Assembly (NCBI GenBank): GCA_050011175.1
Contig: JBEKJR010000008.1
Coordinates: 73,610 to 137,609, forward strand
From: Terracidiphilus sp.
Lineage (GTDB): Bacteria; Acidobacteriota; Terriglobia; Terriglobales; Acidobacteriaceae
Direction of reading: 5' to 3'
DNA length: 64,000 nt
Shown: positions 11,680 to 54,001 of the stretch, piece after piece
Layout: the number at the start of each line of letters is the position of its first letter
Position numbering within the stretch: the stretch's first letter is position 1
Made by a program: the position numbers and the translations under genes
The notes under the pieces: generated by a model
Told to the model about the DNA's origin: nothing
Databases searched by the model: none
Seen by the model: only the letters and a program-made list of their open reading frames with translations

Positions 11680-12147
11680 GGTGCTCCTAAAGGCTTAGAC
11701 AGCCGGACAGATTAGGATAGCGCGTGCGGCCACCGGAGTTTGGGGATGCGTCCAACCATACGATACGGCCTTGACGAGAACATGCAAGGAATAACATTTT
11801 CATTCACTCACTTATCCCAGCGTTGTCTTGGCCTTTTCGCAGGTTGCTTCTTTTTAGGCTCTGATCTTTTGTACAGTTCAGCCGTACACCAAGTGCGGAT
11901 TATTGGACCAAATACATACTGAACCAAAATCTTGAATACATTGAGAAAAAGCAAACGATCCATTGAAATTTCCCCTGGACCCTGATTAATTTCCGGTCTG
12001 GAGCCATTGTTTCTCCATACACCACAAATTCGTGACGTAGATGTCCTACCTGTCGTACTTGCCGAAGATGGAATAGATGGATCAGGTGGCGCATCAATCA
12101 GGGATTGCGGGAGCTCCTGGACTTTAGTAGGATGAGAATAGTTTTTG

Positions 12148-12915
12148 ATGCGCGCAACAATTCCAGGGGCCGAGCGCGTGCGGGCTGGAGGGCCGATGGC
12201 GGAGAAGGCGGTGGTTCGCAGCGATGAGACGCACAAGTCGCAGGTGGACGCGGAGACCACGGCGCGGGTGATTGCGGAGAAGCGGATCGGCGAGCGGATC
12301 AAGCGGCTGCGGCTGAAAAAGTCCATGGGGCTGGTGGAGTTGGGCAAGCTGACGGGGCTTTCGGCGAGCTTTTTGTCGCAGTTGGAGACGGGGCGGGTGG
12401 TGCCGACGCTGCGCAACCTGGCGCGGATCGCGATGGTGTTTTCCAAGGACCTGTCCTACTTCTTCGAGAGCGATGCGGCGGCGGTCTTCCGGATTCACCG
12501 GCGCAAGGAGCGGGTGAAGATGCCGCAGACGGGTGTGGATGTTCCGACCTACTTTTTTGAGAGCCTGGGCTACATGGTTCCTGACCGGCAGATGGACCCT
12601 TACTTTGCTGAGTTTGTTCCTCTGACCAAGGAGATGGAGCCGAAGGCGCACATGCACCCGGGGAGCGAGTTTCTGTATGTGCTGGAAGGGGAGCTGGAGA
12701 TTCGTCACGGGGAGCAGGGGTACATATTGGGAGCGGGGGACGCGGTGTACTTTGACGCGAGCACGCCGCACGCCTACCTGTGCGCGGGCCGGAAGCCTGC
12801 CGGGGCGATCATCGTAACCCTGAACCAGGCGCCGGTGGCGGGGCCGCCGCGGGCCGCGAATACACGGGTCGCAGCCAGCGGTCCGGCGCGGCCGGGCAGC
12901 GGAGAGAGCAAGTAA
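12148..12915 (+). CDS. XRE-family HTH-cupin transcriptional regulator
   Basis: IGERIKRLRL...LSASFLSQLETG HTH and HPGSEFLYVLEGEL cupin; start may be 12196. Confidence 0.92.
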   Translation: MRATIPGAERVRAGGPMAEKAVVRSDETHKSQVDAETTARVIAEKRIGERIKRLRLKKSMGLVELGKLTGLSASFLSQLETGRVVPTLRNLARIAMVFSKDLSYFFESDAAAVFRIHRRKERVKMPQTGVDVPTYFFESLGYMVPDRQMDPYFAEFVPLTKEMEPKAHMHPGSEFLYVLEGELEIRHGEQGYILGAGDAVYFDASTPHAYLCAGRKPAGAIIVTLNQAPVAGPPRAANTRVAASGPARPGSGESK

Positions 12916-19655: not shown

Positions 19656-19958
19656 CTACTCTTTGAAAGCCGCCTCGAAGTCTTGTCCGCCATAGAAAAT
19701 GCCGAGGATGGTCACCACATCGGCAGTGACCTCGAAAGCGATGCTGACGCGCCTCCGGAATCCGAAGACACGCAAGCCGGAGCGGATGTCGTTTCGCAGT
19801 GCGCCGCGCATGGGGAAGGTCTTCAGGCTTTCGCATTGCTTCACGATAGCGTCGGTGTAGCGGGCGGCAATTTCCGGAGAGGCTGCCGCGGCAATATGGA
19901 AATAGATAGCCACCAGTTGGGCCTCAGCTTCCGGGGCATAGACGACGCTGTGCATCAT
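19656..19958 (-). CDS. RelE/ParE-family toxin
   Basis: VVYAPEAEAQL...FPMRGALRNDIRSGLR; overlaps the antitoxin stop. Confidence 0.88.
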   Translation of the reverse strand: MMHSVVYAPEAEAQLVAIYFHIAAAASPEIAARYTDAIVKQCESLKTFPMRGALRNDIRSGLRVFGFRRRVSIAFEVTADVVTILGIFYGGQDFEAAFKE

Positions 19959-20233
19959 CCAGCCCTGAGTGCGGATTTGCGGGCCGCCGCCAGAGAGGCG
20001 CGCACCTGGGCTGCCGAACGAGCGCGGGAGGGATTGGCTTTCATGGCGTCGTAGGCCGCGGCTACGTCTTTGCGCAGCCAGGCTTCGAGCGCGCGGTCGT
20101 GCATCTCCAGAGCACGAAGTCCATCGCGGATGACCTCGCTCTCCGAGGCATATTCGCCGGATTCGACTTTGATGCGGACCATATCGGCCATCTCATGGGT
20201 CAGGGTGATGCTGAATTGCTGAGTAGAGCGCAT
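19955..20233 (-). CDS. ParD-like RHH antitoxin
   Basis: FSITL...VESGEYASESEVIRDGLR. Confidence 0.88.
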   Translation of the reverse strand: MRSTQQFSITLTHEMADMVRIKVESGEYASESEVIRDGLRALEMHDRALEAWLRKDVAAAYDAMKANPSRARSAAQVRASLAAARKSALRAG

Positions 20234-20303: not shown

Positions 20304-22139
20304 CTACGCTAGCTCCACCTCAATCTTCTTTGCTTCCGCGTCGATCTTGGTGATTTTGAAGGTGCGGATTTGGCCTTCGGCAAGCGAATCGGACTTGGAT
20401 TGGGGCGCGGGGGAGTAGCCCTTCCAGCGGCTCTTTAACTGCGAGGAGAGCGCGGAGAGATCGACCACTTGCGGTGGGGCAGACGCCGCTTGCGCGGCAG
20501 TAGCACTTGATGAGGCCGATGTTCCTGCCGTCGCCGAAGGCATTCCGCCCGTACGGCAAGTACCTCGGATGCCGTCGCCCAGTTCGACCTGAGCAGATGA
20601 CTCCGTCACTTCGACGACGCGGCCGGAAACGGTGTCGCCGACCTTGTGCTCGGCGATGTACTCGTCGATGTCGCCGGGGACAAGCTGCTTCATGCTGAGC
20701 TTGATCTGGCGCTTTTCCGGATCGATGGCGAGGATTTGCGCTTTGACGATCTGGCCCTTGCGCAACATTTCCGAGGGGTGGTTGAGGCGGCGCTCGGCGG
20801 TGATCTCGCTGACGTGGACCAGGCCTTCTACGCCGTCGGTCAACTGCACGAAGGCTCCGAAGTTCATCAGCTTGGTGACGGGGCCGGTGATCATGGAGCC
20901 GATGGGGAAGGTACGCTCGACGTTGGTCCAGGGGTCGGCGAGGGTTTGCTTGAGACCGAGGGAGATGCGGCGCTCCTCCGGCTTGATGGCGAGGATGACG
21001 ACATCGACGCGGTCGCCTTGGCGGAGCAGGTCGGAGGGGTGGCGCAGCTTTTTGCCGTAGGACATCTCGGAGATGTGGATGAGGCCTTCGATGCCGGGCT
21101 CGATCTCGACGAAGGCGCCGAAGTCGGCCAGGCGGGTGACCGTGCCGGTGATGCGCTGGTTGACGGCGAGGCGGTCGGGAGCGGTCAGCCAGGGTTCGGG
21201 CTGAAGCTGCTTGAGGCCGAGGGAAATTTTCTGCGTTCCGGGATCGATTTTGAGGATTTTGAGTTGAAGTTCCTGGCCGAGGGCGAGGACGTCTTCAGGG
21301 CGGGCGATGCGGGCGTGGGAGATGTCAGAGACGTGCAGCAGGCCGTCGAGTCCGCCGAGGTCGATGAAGGCTCCGTAGGGCATGAGGGTGCGGACGGTGC
21401 CGGTGACGATGGCGCCCTCTTTCAACTCCTCGCGGCGGGCCTCGCTGAGGCCGCGGGCCTGCTCTTCGAGAACGACGCGGCGGTCGACGACCACGTCTTC
21501 ATCGGTGACGTCGAGCTTGGTGATACGGCAGGTGATTTCCGTGCCGACCAGCTTTTCCAGCTCGGCTGCGTCCTTGGTTCCGCTGCGGCTGGCGGGCATG
21601 AAGGCGCGCACGCCGACATCGACCGTGACGCCGCCCTTGCGGACTTCGGTGACGGTGCCGACGATGGCCAGCTTCTGTTGGAAGGCGGCTTCGAGGGCCG
21701 ACCAGTCGCGGGGCTGGGACACTTTGAAGCGCGAGAGCTCGTAGTAGCGCTCGACGTTGCGGCCAGTGACGGAGACGGGGAAGGTGTCGCCGGGGTGGAC
21801 GCCCTCGGCGTTGTTGGCGAAGGCCGAACGGGGCAGAACGCCCTCGGTTTTATAGCCGATGTCGAGGAAGACCTGGTCGGCGGAGAGGGAGATGACCGTG
21901 CCTATGAGCTGCTGCTGACCGGGCTCGGATTTGTGCGAGTGGCTGCGCTCGAAGTCGTTGAGCAGGTCGGCAAAGGATTCCTGCGGCTCGTCGGCGGAGG
22001 GTTCCTCGGCGATGGGTTCGGAGGGCAGAGAAGCGGACTCAGGAGCTGCCTCGGCGGCCTGCTCCGCAATGGATTCGGCGGCAGGCTCAGGCGTGATTTC
22101 GGGGGCGGGCTGGGACTCTTCGGGATTTTCGCTGGTCAT
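20304..22139 (-). CDS. rpsA: Ribosomal protein S1-like protein (six S1 repeats)
   Basis: Repeated GxV...YGAFIDLGGLDGLLHVSDIS and FGAFVEIEPGIEGLIHISEMS; start at 22139 or 22157; may be a paralog. Confidence 0.8.
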   Translation of the reverse strand: MTSENPEESQPAPEITPEPAAESIAEQAAEAAPESASLPSEPIAEEPSADEPQESFADLLNDFERSHSHKSEPGQQQLIGTVISLSADQVFLDIGYKTEGVLPRSAFANNAEGVHPGDTFPVSVTGRNVERYYELSRFKVSQPRDWSALEAAFQQKLAIVGTVTEVRKGGVTVDVGVRAFMPASRSGTKDAAELEKLVGTEITCRITKLDVTDEDVVVDRRVVLEEQARGLSEARREELKEGAIVTGTVRTLMPYGAFIDLGGLDGLLHVSDISHARIARPEDVLALGQELQLKILKIDPGTQKISLGLKQLQPEPWLTAPDRLAVNQRITGTVTRLADFGAFVEIEPGIEGLIHISEMSYGKKLRHPSDLLRQGDRVDVVILAIKPEERRISLGLKQTLADPWTNVERTFPIGSMITGPVTKLMNFGAFVQLTDGVEGLVHVSEITAERRLNHPSEMLRKGQIVKAQILAIDPEKRQIKLSMKQLVPGDIDEYIAEHKVGDTVSGRVVEVTESSAQVELGDGIRGTCRTGGMPSATAGTSASSSATAAQAASAPPQVVDLSALSSQLKSRWKGYSPAPQSKSDSLAEGQIRTFKITKIDAEAKKIEVELA

Positions 22140-22214
22140 GACGGTGTATATCTTCATTCTCCCATGATTGCGCGGGAGATGTACGCGGTCCGTAATTGGA
22201 TACACTGAATATGT

Positions 22215-25184
22215 ATGGAAAATCGCCCAAAAAACGTTATGACGGGGAACGAGATTCGCGAAGCGTTTCTGCGCTTTTTTGAGTCGAAGGGGCATCGGCG
22301 GGTGCATTCTTCTTCGCTGGTGCCGGCCAACGACCCGACGCTGCTGTTTACCAACGCGGGGATGAACCAGTTCAAGGACCTGTTTCTGGGAGCCGAGCGG
22401 CGGGAGTACACGCGGGCTACAACCTCGCAAAAGTGCGTGCGCGCCGGGGGCAAGCACAACGACCTGGAGAACGTGGGCTTCACGCGGCGGCATCATACGT
22501 TTTTTGAGATGCTGGGGAACTTCTCGTTCGGCGATTATTTCAAGCGGGAAGCGATCCACTACGCCTGGGAGCTGGTTACCGGCAAGAGGGCGAATGGCTG
22601 CTTCGAGATTCCGGTGGAGCGGCTGTACGTGACGATTTTTGAGGGAGCGGAGGGCGTTCCGCGCGATGACGAGGCGGAAAAGTTTTGGATCGAGGCGGGA
22701 GTGCCGAAGAATCGCATTCACGCATGCGGGATGAAGGACAACTTCTGGCAGATGGGCGAGACGGGGCCATGCGGACCTTGCTCGGAGATTTTCTACGACA
22801 TGGGGCTGGAGGCGGCGGAGACGCAGGGAGTGGATAAACCCTTTGGGCAGGATGAGGCGCGCTACGTGGAGATTTGGAACCTGGTCTTCATGCAGTTTGA
22901 TCGGGCGGCGGTGGCGGACGCGAAGGGAAAGACGACCGGGTACAAGCTGACTCCGCTGCCCAAGCCGTGCGTTGATACGGGCGCGGGGCTGGAGCGGCTG
23001 GCGGCGGTGCTGCAAGGGAAGGTTTCGAACTTCGAGACGGATTTGTTTGTGCCGTTGATTGAGAGAGCGGCGGAGCTGACGGGGCAGCGAGTTAGCGAGT
23101 CAGCAAGTCAGCAAGTTAGCAAGTTAGCGGGATTGGTGGGCAACGCCAGCTTGCGGATTATTGCCGACCATGCGCGGGCAGCGACGTTCCTGATTAACGA
23201 TGGCGTGCTGCCGTCGAATGAGGGGCGGGGCTATGTGCTCAGAAAGATTTTGCGGCGCGGGATTCGGCATGGGCGGCTGCTGGGGCAGGAAAAACCGTTC
23301 TTGTTTGAGATGGTTTATGCCGTGCGTGATTTGATGCAGGGCGCGTATCCGGAGTTGGTAGATACAGCAACTCGTGTGGCTAATACCATTGCTGCAGAGG
23401 AGCGTCAATTCTCTAGGATGATCAGCATTGGCTCGGTTCAATTGGAGCGAGCCCTTGAGCAGGCAAATGCACCATTCATCCAGACTTTATATGGTCTCTT
23501 AGAGCGTGCGTATCAGAAGCCACGTCCTGATCTAAGCGAGCCAGATTTAGCTATGGCAGTTCGCGAACTAATTCTCAAAAGGGACGCTAGTTTTCTTCTG
23601 CGACTACTTGATCGAATTCGAGAGACAGGAATCGAAATCGCTCAATTGAAGGAAGAAATTGCAAACTTTCAGACGCCCCCAATACTAAAAGGGACAGATG
23701 CTTTTCACCTATATGAGACATACGGCTTACCTAAGGATTTCATACAAGATACTTGCCATGACTTATTAATAGTTTTTGATGATGAGGGCTTTGAAGCTGC
23801 CCGCGCCGAGGAGCAGGCACGTGCCCGCGCATCGTGGAAAGGTGGGAGCCAGAAGTCGGCCAGTCCGGCTTATCGCGATTTGCAGAAGACGGAGTTTCTG
23901 GGTTATAAGACGCTCACTGCGAATGACGCTGAGGTTTTAGCGATTGTGAAAGACGGCGCGGGAGTTCCAGCGGCAAAAGCCGGCGATGTGGTAGAAGTGG
24001 TGCTGAATCAGACCAGCTTTTACGGCGACGCGGGCGGGCAGGCGGGCGATACAGGCTGGTTTACCTCGACGGACGGGAATACGACCGTGGCCGAGATTCA
24101 GGGCTGTGTGCTGCCGGTGCAGGGAGTGAGGGCGCACAAGGCTCTGCTCAAGGAGCCGCTGGCGGTCGGCGATCATGTGCGGACTGTCGTCGATCATGAG
24201 CGACGCGACGCGATCCGGCGGAATCATACGGGGACGCACTTGCTGCACGCGGCGCTGAGGCAGGTGTTAGGGACACATGTGAAGCAGGCTGGGTCGGCAG
24301 TCCATCCGGAGCGGTTTCGCTTTGACTTCTCGCATTTTGCGCCGGTGGCCGATGAGGAGTTGGCCGAGATTGAGACGATTGTGAACCGGCAGGTGCTGGC
24401 CGACACCAAGGTTGAAGCCATTGAGGACGTGCCCATCGACGTGGCGGTGAACGAGTACCACGCCATGGCGCTGTTCGGCGAGAAGTACGGCGACAAGGTG
24501 CGGGTGATCCGGGTGGGCGACTTTTCGACGGAGCTGTGCGGCGGGACGCATACGCGGGCCACGGGCGAGATTGGCCTGGTGAAGATTATGAGAGAGGAGT
24601 CGGTTTCGTCGGGAGTCAGAAGGCTGGAGGCGATCTCGGGCCTGGGCGCGCTGGAGGAGTTTCGGCGAGGCTTTGAGGTAGCGCAGATTGCGGCGCAGTT
24701 GGTTCCCTCGGTAGAGAACCTTCCGGAGGCCTTCCGCGGAAAGCTGGCCGCGCAGGAGGACGAACTGAAACGGCTACATCGAGAGTTGGACGAGGCGCGG
24801 ATGAAGGGGGCTGCCGGGGCGTTGGATGAGGCGATGGGGCGGACGGTGGAAGTGAAGGGCGTGCGGCTGGTGACGCTGCGGGCCGATGCGCTGGAACGCG
24901 GGCAGTTGCGGACGCTTGTCGATAATTTGAAGCAGAAGCTGGGCGAAGGCGTAGTGGTGGTGGCTTCCGCGCAACCCGATGAAAAAGTGGCGCTGATCGC
25001 CGGGGTGACGGCGGGGCTGACCAAGCGGATTCAGGCGGGCAAGCTGGTGGGTGCGGTGGCGAAACTTGTCGGCGGATCGGGCGGCGGCAAGCCGGAGATT
25101 GCCGAGGCGGGCGGGAAAGACCAGTCGCAGATTGATGCGGCGCTCAAGGCCGCGGCGGGGATTGTCGGGGAGTTGCTAGCATAA
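22215..25184 (+). CDS. alaS: Alanine--tRNA ligase with two insertions
   Basis: NDPTLLFTNAGMNQFK, HHTFFEMLGNFSFG, HTGTHLLH and ELCGGTH motifs, DHHA1 C-terminus. Confidence 0.98.
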   Translation: MENRPKNVMTGNEIREAFLRFFESKGHRRVHSSSLVPANDPTLLFTNAGMNQFKDLFLGAERREYTRATTSQKCVRAGGKHNDLENVGFTRRHHTFFEMLGNFSFGDYFKREAIHYAWELVTGKRANGCFEIPVERLYVTIFEGAEGVPRDDEAEKFWIEAGVPKNRIHACGMKDNFWQMGETGPCGPCSEIFYDMGLEAAETQGVDKPFGQDEARYVEIWNLVFMQFDRAAVADAKGKTTGYKLTPLPKPCVDTGAGLERLAAVLQGKVSNFETDLFVPLIERAAELTGQRVSESASQQVSKLAGLVGNASLRIIADHARAATFLINDGVLPSNEGRGYVLRKILRRGIRHGRLLGQEKPFLFEMVYAVRDLMQGAYPELVDTATRVANTIAAEERQFSRMISIGSVQLERALEQANAPFIQTLYGLLERAYQKPRPDLSEPDLAMAVRELILKRDASFLLRLLDRIRETGIEIAQLKEEIANFQTPPILKGTDAFHLYETYGLPKDFIQDTCHDLLIVFDDEGFEAARAEEQARARASWKGGSQKSASPAYRDLQKTEFLGYKTLTANDAEVLAIVKDGAGVPAAKAGDVVEVVLNQTSFYGDAGGQAGDTGWFTSTDGNTTVAEIQGCVLPVQGVRAHKALLKEPLAVGDHVRTVVDHERRDAIRRNHTGTHLLHAALRQVLGTHVKQAGSAVHPERFRFDFSHFAPVADEELAEIETIVNRQVLADTKVEAIEDVPIDVAVNEYHAMALFGEKYGDKVRVIRVGDFSTELCGGTHTRATGEIGLVKIMREESVSSGVRRLEAISGLGALEEFRRGFEVAQIAAQLVPSVENLPEAFRGKLAAQEDELKRLHRELDEARMKGAAGALDEAMGRTVEVKGVRLVTLRADALERGQLRTLVDNLKQKLGEGVVVVASAQPDEKVALIAGVTAGLTKRIQAGKLVGAVAKLVGGSGGGKPEIAEAGGKDQSQIDAALKAAAGIVGELLA
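23084..23131 (+). repeat. Six degenerate 8-bp tandem units in frame in alaS
   Basis: gcagcgag ttagcgag tcagcaag tcagcaag ttagcaag ttagcggg (48 bp). Confidence 0.85.
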
Positions 25185-25222
25185 GCACCTGCGGCGCGGG
25201 GACTTGCCGTCCAGGCAGACGG

Positions 25223-25315
25223 CGCTTGCGCGCCATAAATCGCTTGCGCGCCATAAATATTGTGGTTTCCCACCCATTCCGCAAAGTACGCAGAATGGAT
25301 GGGGCACGGAGCTTT
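25223..25315. repeat. 18-bp tandem duplication followed by a family A hairpin
   Basis: cgcttgcgcgccataaat twice, then tgtggtttcccacccattc...gaatggatggggcacggagc. Confidence 0.75.
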
Positions 25316-25339
25316 CTGTCTCGGAAGTGCGGGTAGCGC

Positions 25340-26110
25340 CTACTTATTGTCGTTGCCGATGAGGCGGAAGGTGATGGTGCCCCAGAAGAGGCGGGCGCGC
25401 ATCTGGACGGGCAGATGGCGCTCGTCGTCGGTGTACCAGATCCAAATGTTGCCGCGATTCTTGACCACGCCGGCATCGGCGGTGGGCTGCACGCGCAGGG
25501 TTTTGAAAACGCCGAGCGGGGTTTTAATCTCCTCGCGGCCTTCGATCTTCATGGTCACGGGCACGACGCGCATGTTGTCAAAGACCGGGATGACGAAGTT
25601 GTGTCCCAGGGCGATGGGCTGCGACGAAGCATAGTAGACGCCGGTGAGCAGGTCGGTGAGACAGGCGGGCGCAGTGGATTCGACGTGCTTGGTTTGCTTG
25701 TTGCCCAGGTTTTTCTCGTCCAGGATGGCGCGGTTTTGGGCGTAGTCGAGATGGAGCGTCGAGGTGATCTGGCGGCGGCCCTCGACGGTCTGCTTGTTGA
25801 AGTCGTAGGTGCAGCCGGTGGCGCGGTCGAAGCTGGACTGGAAGCGGTCGCTGACGTGGAAGATCAGGTTGATGGCGCCGCTGGTGTCGGCGCTGGCGGT
25901 GAGGTTCTCGCGGTCGCCGGCGGCCTCAAAGCGCAGCACGGCCGTTCCGGCGGGAAAGACCCGCCAGTCCACCGAGTAGGTGAGGGTTTGCTTGAGCGGA
26001 AAGCTATAGCCGGGGCGCGGGGGCAAGAGCGGGGGTGGCTGCTGGGCGGGAATCGCGGCGGCTAGAGCAAGTGCGCAAAGAACTGCGGTCAGGGTTAAGC
26101 GCGTTTTCAC
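25340..26110 (-). CDS. DUF3108-like secreted protein
   Basis: Signal peptide; GREEIKTPLGVFKTLRV and IWYTDDERHLPVQMR motifs. Confidence 0.8.
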   Translation of the reverse strand: MKTRLTLTAVLCALALAAAIPAQQPPPLLPPRPGYSFPLKQTLTYSVDWRVFPAGTAVLRFEAAGDRENLTASADTSGAINLIFHVSDRFQSSFDRATGCTYDFNKQTVEGRRQITSTLHLDYAQNRAILDEKNLGNKQTKHVESTAPACLTDLLTGVYYASSQPIALGHNFVIPVFDNMRVVPVTMKIEGREEIKTPLGVFKTLRVQPTADAGVVKNRGNIWIWYTDDERHLPVQMRARLFWGTITFRLIGNDNK

Positions 26111-39686: not shown

Positions 39687-39771
39687 GTCGGGATGGCGGA
39701 ACTGGCAAACGCAGCGGACTCAAAATCCGCCGGCCCTCGCGGCCATGGGGTCTCGCCCCCTCCCGGCACCA
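39687..39771 (+). tRNA. tRNA-Leu(CAA) with a shortened, non-canonical T-arm (possible pseudo-tRNA)
   Basis: Acceptor stem, D-arm, CTCAAAA loop, long variable arm and CCA are intact; the T-arm reads GGGG-TCTCG-CCCCC and lacks TTCG. Confidence 0.75.
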
Positions 39772-39911
39772 AACAAAACATTGATAATCAACAACTTAAT
39801 ACTTTTAACTGCCAATTCTTGTAGTGGTCAGATGAGTGAACTTGCGCCACAAATCAATGATCCCGGTATACTCTGTAGAGCGGAAATCAATCACACAAGA
39901 GGAGTCATGCC

Positions 39912-40436
39912 GTGAAAATGAGATTGGCAATGGCGTTGTTGTTCGTTTTATACGTGCCCAAGGTGTTCGCTCAAGATCATCCGAATCAACTCTTACTGGG
40001 TTATGACGGCGAGTGGACACATGTATCCCAGCAGTTGATTGCGCTGGCCGAGGCAACCCCAGCCGAGAAGTTTGCCTGGCGACCGGCTCCGGGAGTGCGC
40101 TCAACCAGCGAGGTCTATATGCACATCGTGACGGCTAACTTCATCTTGCTGAAAATCACTGGTTCTAAAATGCCGCCAGACCTCAAGGAGGACTCCGAAA
40201 GAACCGTTACATCCAAGGCAGAGGTAATCAGTTGGCTCAAGCGCTCCTTGGACGCTGTAAAGCAAGCACATTTGGCGGAGAGCCCGCAAGATCTTGTCCG
40301 CAAGGTTCGCTTTATGGGCCGGGATGCCACGGTAGACGATGTGTATCTCCGCATCATCCTTCATGCAAACGAGCACATGGGGCAATTGGTCGCATACGCG
40401 CGAATGACGGGCGTCGTGCCGCCTTGGTCAAAATGA
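39912..40436 (+). CDS. DinB-family protein with signal peptide
   Basis: FAWRPAPGVRSTSEVYMH and HANEHMGQLVAYARM motifs. Confidence 0.88.
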   Translation: MKMRLAMALLFVLYVPKVFAQDHPNQLLLGYDGEWTHVSQQLIALAEATPAEKFAWRPAPGVRSTSEVYMHIVTANFILLKITGSKMPPDLKEDSERTVTSKAEVISWLKRSLDAVKQAHLAESPQDLVRKVRFMGRDATVDDVYLRIILHANEHMGQLVAYARMTGVVPPWSK

Positions 40437-51850: not shown

Positions 51851-53662
<1,812 letters not shown>

Positions 53663-53671
53663 GCGCCGATT

Positions 53672-53923
53672 TGTGATGCAATTCACAATTATTTAATCAG
53701 GATATGTGGATAACCCCGAAAAGCCCGCAAACATGCCCCTGCAACTAGCGTCTGCACCTAGAACAGGGCATTCTCCTGATGGTGATTGATAAATAAGGGG
53801 TTGCGTTGTGTATCAAAAGAATCAGTTCTTGGCAAGAGGATTTTTTTTGAATTAATTGATAGGGTTCGCGAAAGTGATCCACAGGTTTTTCCACAGCACA
53901 GTATGGGAAGAAGCGGTGGATAG
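53672..53923. promoter_or_regulatory. CRP/FNR-type palindrome plus a cluster of DnaA-box-like 9-mers in an AT-rich spacer
   Basis: TGTGA-N6-TCACA at 53672; TGTGGATAA at 53705, TGTGTATCA at 53807, TGATCCACA at 53875, TTTTCCACA at 53887. Confidence 0.6.
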
Positions 53924-53974
53924 TTCAAATGACGGACAGCCGTTGCGGAGGAGATGAAATGCGCCGCAGAACGG

Positions 53975-54001
53975 CAAGAGCCCCGTAATGCGGGGCTCTT
54001 G
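53975..54001. terminator. Hairpin terminator downstream of skp
   Basis: caagagccccg-taatg-cggggctcttg. Confidence 0.7.

Follow-up and report, generated by a model that had tools for sequence, protein, structure and literature searches.

The alaS gene of a Terracidiphilus sp. (Acidobacteriaceae) contains a low-GC patch that is probably one allele, F10, of a multi-allelic segment exchanged by recombination among Acidobacteriaceae of the Terracidiphilus/Occallatibacter group. The gene encodes alanine--tRNA ligase (alanyl-tRNA synthetase, AlaRS) and lies in a 64,000-nucleotide stretch of contig JBEKJR010000008.1 (assembly GCA_050011175.1), which is called the window here. The patch occupies positions 23358–23798 of the window on the forward strand (codons 382–528 of alaS) and is read as an exchangeable segment, consisting of an insert and its co-inherited conserved flanks. 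Its limits were set by a change-point scan and by a drop in nucleotide identity to relatives.

The low-GC tract of alaS

A two-change-point likelihood scan of GC at third codon positions (GC3) gave 0.35 inside codons 382–528 and 0.76 outside. The log-likelihood ratio of the patch was 45, compared with a maximum of 11.4 across 200 permutations. The original prediction, made from the sequence of the window, had placed a low-GC interval at 23360–23790, which agrees closely with the scan. The patch is composed of a helical insertion of about 71 amino acids, about 37 conserved codons upstream, and about 41 conserved codons downstream. The cassette proper (23463–23693, forward strand, residues 417–493, family F10) stands in place of a basal six-residue loop, QGSFTG, as determined by alignment to alleles without an insert and by split Pfam and PDB matches. 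Compared with the six-residue loop of the insert-free allele P0030, residues 417–493 represent a net gain of about 71 amino acids. The original prediction had put the insertion at about 65 amino acids. The upstream conserved flank (23358–23462, forward strand) is written in AT-ending codons and has allele-specific residues (RVAN and RMI..GSVQLERAL) in common with the related gene P0002. The downstream conserved flank (23694–23798, forward strand), which contains DAFHLYETYGLPKDFIQDTCHD, is also written in AT-ending codons and belongs to the KDFIQD.CHD allele type.

Observed GC3 was compared with the value expected from the per-amino-acid codon preferences of the backbone. It was 0.35 against 0.77 in the insert, 0.44 against 0.77 in the upstream flank, and 0.39 against 0.74 in the downstream flank. 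Since the expected values are 0.74–0.77, the low GC3 of the patch is not an effect of its amino acid composition. The AT shift was seen in nearly every amino acid class, and the conserved motif DAFHLYETYGLP is encoded by A- or T-ending codons, as had been pointed out before. No comparable internal patch was found in the other window genes (21 tested), where true internal segments reached a ratio of at most 7.4. Two ratios of 15–18 elsewhere in the window fall in the first 50–60 codons or so of overlapping frames and probably reflect noncoding 5' extensions. The window holds 16 AT-rich stretches, nearly all of which, except the alaS patch, are intergenic or at gene ends. The 15 other stretches (for example, 11728–12162, 39737–40041, and 53621–53991) have a GC content of 0.39–0.46, and the alaS patch resembles this intergenic composition. 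Rfam (E up to 1) and promoter and terminator scans of 22000–25400 found nothing, which leaves an RNA gene embedded in this interval, or a promoter inside it, unsupported.

Diversity of inserts among relatives

The comparison set comprised the 120 closest proteins (72–86% identical, several from Terracidiphilus sp.) and 80 loci from metagenome-assembled genomes (MAGs) of Acidobacteriaceae, which gave about 200 alaS genes of the Terracidiphilus/Occallatibacter group. Between the motifs EEKQFDRVLKIGLTRLNEEL and G.KAFHLYETFGLP, a six-residue loop such as QGSFTG is present in 26 of about 190 sequences, and the rest have 14–117 amino acids. BLASTP clustering divided the 164 inserts of at least 15 amino acids into 51 mutually unrelated families. 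Profile–profile comparison of the 16 largest families with hhalign revealed no relationship, the best probability being 12.8%. A Pfam search of 50 cassette representatives, including the insert of the window, returned no domain and just weak coiled-coil-type noise. The original prediction had described a hypervariable, exchangeable module in which the reading frame is kept, and the 51 unrelated families and the insert-free state among close relatives bear this out. An alignment of alaS across relatives, which it had proposed as a check, showed a hypervariable interval and swap tracts with clean borders. Literature searches retrieved no description of hypervariable AlaRS inserts.

Family F10 has two further members, P0002, with an insert 53% identical to that of the window, and P0070, which is a weak match. 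Both belong to the same clade as the window gene. A scan of JGI metagenomes with an F10 profile recovered the P0002 contig alone among the matches listed. A protein search with the insert by itself yielded no candidate with enough common 5-mers. A search with the 161-amino-acid patch gave six matches and no others; these were short frameshifted alaS fragments in error-prone assemblies and were rejected as free-standing cassettes.

Outside the clade, 111 representatives of 50% clusters were compared, and 97 of them have 27–38 residues between the same anchors. A longer loop, with a maximum of 189 residues, occurs in the remaining 14. These counts suggest that the loop is generally permissive and exceptionally active in this clade.

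Some inserts carry signs of local sequence expansion. The insert of L027 opens with a second copy of the helix before it (VLKTGLVKLDELIA / MLKAGLSKLDELIA), that of L080 consists of tandem repeats of about LQPYQNAMQEMQKAQEA, and F06 inserts are Gly/Ser-rich and of low complexity. These may be routes by which new cassettes arise. The window insert was also compared with the rest of AlaRS, and its Smith–Waterman score equaled the shuffle mean, with no internal duplication.

Decoupling of insert and backbone

Backbone distances were calculated over 776 alignment columns, with both variable sites of the gene excluded. The nearest backbones to that of the window differ in their state at the cassette site. 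P0003-6, at 4.4% amino acid distance, carry F02, P0008 (5.0%) carries a singleton insert, and P0030 (5.2%) is insert-free. Families F01, F02, and F04 were found on backbones that are 20–27% apart. The fraction of gene pairs sharing a family is 0.92 at a distance below 1%, about 0.10 at 4–6%, and flat at 0.03–0.06 beyond that. The original prediction had named a conserved, vertically inherited insert as the result that would speak against it, and near-identical genes with different inserts make such inheritance unlikely.

Two pairs of genes illustrate the replacement. P0020, with an 87-residue cassette, and P0011, with a 26-residue cassette, are nucleotide-identical at codons 1–346 and 625–1011 and differ densely between these segments. 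L052 and P0104 show sparse differences throughout and a complete cassette swap, the borders of which lie within about 25 codons of the insert. In the window gene, nucleotide identity to P0030, P0003, and P0008 drops from about 0.9 to 0.35–0.68 across 23358–23798 and recovers past approximately 23793. The gene is itself a mosaic, in which identity changes abruptly and segments have different nearest relatives: the cassette allele groups with P0002, a second loop (approximately 23040–23130) groups with P0003 (0.88–0.93), and 23829–24200 matches P0008 best. The proposed block replacement by recombination is consistent with these clean tracts and with the decoupling of insert family from backbone.

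Silent diversity at third positions was measured among six close relatives. It is about 0.25–0.30 along the gene, climbs to 0.45–0.61 near the cassette, and falls off again in either direction, with a minor peak at the second variable loop. Allele classes older than the gene, a peak of silent diversity, and families spread over backbones that are 20–27% diverged together form the pattern of a long-lived polymorphism. The decoupling from the backbone, the occurrence of one family on diverged backbones, and the silent-diversity peak indicate allelic replacement of cassettes by homologous recombination. Judged from these sequence patterns, the exchange most likely takes place through general homologous recombination within the conserved parts of alaS that flank the cassette. 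Site-specific recombination is unsupported, as the cassette borders at 59 loci revealed no conserved DNA motif or inverted repeat.

Composition of the cassettes

All 59 insert-bearing loci have an insert GC3 below that of the rest of the gene, with a mean difference of −0.26 (standard deviation 0.08). The flanks at these loci are shifted by −0.15 and −0.14, compared with just −0.08 at loci without an insert. The window is extreme in this respect (−0.41, −0.30, and −0.37), along with L068 and L004. Within a family, silent divergence between members has reached saturation, yet all members are AT-shifted. Among 80 related genomes, none has an alaS backbone of low GC3. The presence of the shift at all 59 loci and the saturation of silent sites indicate that low GC3 is a standing property of these alleles and not the mark of a recent foreign origin. 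The AT-rich composition looks like the equilibrium of these alleles.

Predicted structure and constraint of the insert

In the PDB alignment to E. coli AlaRS, the extra residues fall between approximately residues 381 and 391 of the E. coli enzyme. A domain-level AF2 model was used, since the full-length model was poor (pLDDT, the predicted local distance difference test score, of 50). The domain model has a mean pLDDT of 81, with 73–87 in the insert. It predicts helices at residues 381–433 (the preceding helix, extended), 442–455, 458–471, and 475–485, followed by the conserved helix Tyr500-Glu501-Thr-Tyr-Gly504. Structure prediction had been among the checks proposed at the outset, and it renders the insert as a helix extension and three short helices. 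The insert is thus predicted to be a four-helix appendage of about 71 amino acids that extends from a surface loop in the helical (Mid2) portion of the tRNA-recognition domain. A PDB fold search with the domain model matched AlaRS fragments alone and gave no match for the insert.

The cassette lies about 10 residues before the Tyr-Asp/Glu-Thr-Tyr-Gly motif, which reads the G3:U70 identity pair. In E. coli AlaRS, Tyr399, Asp400, and Gly403 make minor-groove contacts to G3:U70, Asp400 reads the 2-amino group of G3, and the D400A and D400N variants are nearly inactive (PMC6055181). By the PDB alignment, Glu501 of the window enzyme (codon GAG, 23715–23717, forward strand) takes the position of Asp400, eight residues past the cassette. 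Asn335 (codon AAT, 23217–23219, forward strand) corresponds in the same alignment to E. coli Asn303, the major-groove reader of U70, and is conserved. Glu occupies the Asp400 position in 198 of 199 clade sequences, in contrast to Asp in 113 of 118 representatives from outside. The residue equivalent to this minor-groove reader of G3 has been described as strictly conserved. Acidobacteria also have unusual allo-tRNAs, some with G3:U70, that can be charged by AlaRS (PMC5389517). A link between these allo-tRNAs and the cassette site is speculative.

When the window is compared with P0002, the ratio of nonsynonymous to synonymous divergence (dN/dS) comes to 0.35 for the insert and 0.06–0.10 for the backbone; family F26 has a value of 0.10. 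Insert dN in the window/P0002 pair is 5–10 times backbone dN. The values of 0.35 in this pair, and down to 0.10 in other families, indicate that the inserts are constrained and not junk. At the same time, the existence of close relatives without an insert indicates that it is dispensable for the basic function of AlaRS. The cassettes vary in structure, including helical, Gly/Ser-rich, and tandem-repeat forms, and their net charge is mostly neutral to acidic. This heterogeneity and charge disfavor a common RNA-binding role.

Proposed mechanism

The sequence comparisons show that the moving unit of DNA is the insert together with some tens of conserved alaS codons on each side, and that homologous recombination in the conserved flanks swaps one allele for another or for an insert-free allele. 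The cassette alleles are old in comparison with the remaining gene, where recombination keeps the sequence homogeneous, and deep, saturated silent divergence is retained in the cassette region for this reason. Each allele presumably recombines with its own rare kind only. The cassettes and their immediate flanks would thereby escape the GC-favoring force acting on the backbone, which may be biased gene conversion, codon selection, or both. The insert itself is subject to moderate purifying selection and is retained as a folded module of slight acidity on the enzyme surface. The diversity of alleles may be neutral, or selection may maintain it.

Several points weigh against this explanation. 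The comparison sequences are mostly MAGs and metagenome contigs, in which DNA of several co-occurring strains may be joined. P0020, one half of the cleanest swap pair, comes from a metagenomic contig of 3.4 kb that may be chimeric. The support for recombination comes from sliding-window and change-point comparisons and not from formal tests (GARD, 3SEQ, ClonalFrame, or PHI). For the window and P0002, F10 may have been inherited vertically, as the synonymous divergence (dS) of 0.83 in the insert barely exceeds that of the backbone (0.50–0.71). The explanation does not account for the origin of new cassettes, and the window insert has no internal duplication and no second copy in the 64 kb. The escape from a GC-favoring force is our inference, and selection for slow or unstructured mRNA may be an alternative cause of the low GC3.

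Alternative explanations

An insertion of single origin could have been inherited vertically and have evolved very fast at a permissive loop, so that the families would be one diverged lineage without exchange. Such drift would account for the excess of insert dN over backbone dN in the window/P0002 pair, for local duplication or repeat expansion in some inserts (L027, L080, and the Gly/Ser-rich F06), and for the occasional expansion of the site in other phyla. It is nevertheless unlikely, as unrelated cassettes are found on identical or 99% identical backbones, families remain recognizable across backbones that are 20–27% diverged, and the conserved flanks are also raised in silent divergence. 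In addition, some family pairs are as conserved as the backbone (F26, dN/dS 0.10; L007 and L036 of F03, dN 0.05). The original prediction had instead attributed the patch to a foreign, low-GC donor. A one-off block replacement of this kind would fit the sharp borders of the patch, the AT-ending codons of its conserved flanks, and the collapse of nucleotide identity to the nearest backbones. The lowered GC3 is, however, common to all 59 cassettes and persists despite saturated silent sites within families. In the flanks, Glu501 is a residue specific to the clade, and KDFIQD.CHD is a clade allele present in many relatives. P0002 and, weakly, P0070 place the relatives of F10 within the clade, and no low-GC3 backbone that could represent the donor was seen in the 80 related genomes. 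The foreign donor is therefore not upheld and is considered quite improbable. A chimeric contig is the least credible source of the patch, even though the clade is known mainly from metagenomes. The alaS DNA of the window was found with 0 differences in three more JGI assemblies from separate samples (L090-L092, contigs of 14–180 kb), which makes misassembly unlikely, and the patch is also identical in an ENA contig.

A translated mobile element would agree with AT-rich DNA that resembles the intergenic DNA of the genome, stays in frame, and varies in presence. The possible forms are a degenerate intein, an in-frame miniature inverted-repeat transposable element of the Rickettsia palindromic element type, and the target of a diversity-generating retroelement, and all of them are very improbable. 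The absence of intein hallmarks, which had already been noted, is confirmed. The insert starts with ANAP after Q418 and ends in ...PILKG, without the Cys, Ser, or Thr start and the His-Asn end needed for splicing, and it has about 71 amino acids compared with at least about 130 for an intein. Neither Hint nor any other Pfam domain matched the 50 cassette representatives. No terminal inverted repeats flank the insert, blastn and tblastn detected no second copy in the 64-kb window, and the borders at the 59 loci have no DNA motif in common; an in-frame miniature element was rejected accordingly. A retroelement target was rejected too, as the region has no repeat in the window and the variation consists of unrelated sequence and length and not of A-specific substitution. 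A different possibility is that negative frequency-dependent selection maintains the alleles, with the module as a contact site for an antagonist, such as an AlaRS-binding protein of a phage or toxin system or parasitic G3:U70 allo-tRNAs. The original prediction had suggested diversifying pressure from phage, toxins, or inhibitors; dN/dS within the cassette family of the window is 0.35 and does not exceed 1. Many old alleles, intraspecific swaps, and a peak of silent diversity form the classic picture of balanced polymorphism. Moreover, the site is about 10 residues from the G3:U70 reader, which has changed from Asp to Glu in the clade, and G3:U70 allo-tRNAs chargeable by AlaRS occur in Acidobacteria (PMC5389517). 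On the other hand, no antagonist is known, dN/dS is below 1 within families, and insert-free alleles coexist in close relatives. The inserts are structurally heterogeneous, mostly neutral to acidic, and unlike RNA-binding modules, and heterology that blocks homogenizing recombination yields the same population-genetic picture. Maintenance by such selection is thus possible but doubtful. The same tentative standing is given to the idea of an arms-race locus in a core translation enzyme, with the clade-wide Asp-to-Glu change at the G3 reader as part of the same adaptation. The exchange of old cassette alleles by recombination within the clade remains the probable explanation.

Gene identity, second loop, and neighboring sequences

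The window alaS (22215–25184, forward strand) is an intact frame of 989 amino acids, assigned from the list of open reading frames (ORFs), Pfam, and homologues. It matches PF01411 (tRNA-synt_2c, 6.6e-183), PF07973 (tRNA_SAD), and PF02272 (DHHA1), and the tRNA-synt_2c match falls in two stretches with a break after residue 418. The catalytic/tRNA-recognition, editing, and C-terminal DHHA1 domains in a single intact ORF identify it as an alanyl-tRNA synthetase of class IIc. Its PDB matches are the catalytic fragments of the E. coli and Aquifex enzymes, and its best homologues are annotated as alanine--tRNA ligase of Terracidiphilus sp. The gene is flanked by rpsA and a DUF3108 gene, which are also its neighbors in relatives.

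A second, smaller length-variable loop lies at 23075–23150 on the forward strand and has 13–94 amino acids in relatives. It contains the 8-nucleotide tandem repeat AGCAAGTT (23086–23128, 5.4 copies, 91% matches). As the period of eight is not a multiple of three, slippage of AGCAAGTT by a single unit would break the frame.

The ENA contig k141_374967 (L089) equals the window alaS except for 27 differences within its last 130 nucleotides (window 25052–25181). These differences represent either another recombination tract or a contig-end artefact. A perfect 18-nucleotide direct repeat, CGCTTGCGCGCCATAAAT, occurs twice at 25223–25258, directly 3' of the alaS stop codon. A small ORF of the ParD/RHH antitoxin family (PF03693, 6.5e-7) is located at 19955–20233 on the reverse strand, just past rpsA. 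On the P0104 contig (L088, 4024–4717), a HigBA-like pair of HTH_37 and Gp49 genes lies between alaS and the DUF3108 gene. This pair is absent at the window and at the other loci examined.

Comparison with known systems and significance

Mosaic genes such as the penicillin-binding protein genes penA and pbp2x arise by homologous recombination between related species. The alaS locus resembles them in that blocks of one essential gene have different nearest relatives and sharp identity breaks, and in that the conserved sequence of the gene itself would provide the homology arms. It differs in that the exchanged block holds non-homologous insertions of 0–117 amino acids at a fixed codon position in dozens of unrelated forms, and it is without a known selective agent. 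The middle domain of the flagellin gene fliC and the target-recognition domains of the type I restriction protein HsdS likewise have conserved flanks around an unrelated core whose length varies, a distribution that disagrees with the strain phylogeny, and a GC content below that of the genome. FliC and HsdS are outward-facing or DNA-specificity proteins and hence have a clear reason for diversity, whereas AlaRS is a cytoplasmic, essential translation enzyme in which the insert is dispensable. Conserved signature indels and insertion modules, which are lineage-specific insertions known from aminoacyl-tRNA synthetases and from subunits of RNA polymerase, are also in-frame additions to surface loops. 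However, signature indels are stable markers of whole clades, and the alaS state switches between genes with as much as 100% identity beyond the tract. Inteins are comparable as in-frame insertions near a critical conserved site of an essential protein, with flanks that are co-converted on transfer. In contrast to inteins, the alaS inserts are short, entirely different in sequence, and must stay in the mature protein.

Aminoacyl-tRNA synthetases are usually regarded as slowly evolving, vertically inherited core genes. In this group of Acidobacteriaceae, an essential synthetase has more than 50 unrelated modules, or none, swapped between near-identical genes beside the residues that read alanine identity. 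If the diversity is neutral, the locus would amount to a naturally occurring inventory of the sequences that a synthetase can accept in this loop, which would be useful for engineering. It would also show cleanly how heterology can leave a pocket of old, AT-drifted alleles within a gene that recombines, and it would call for caution where alaS serves as a marker in phylogenies or in quality checks of MAGs. Selected diversity would point to an antagonist of AlaRS or to a connection with the unusual tRNAs found in Acidobacteria.

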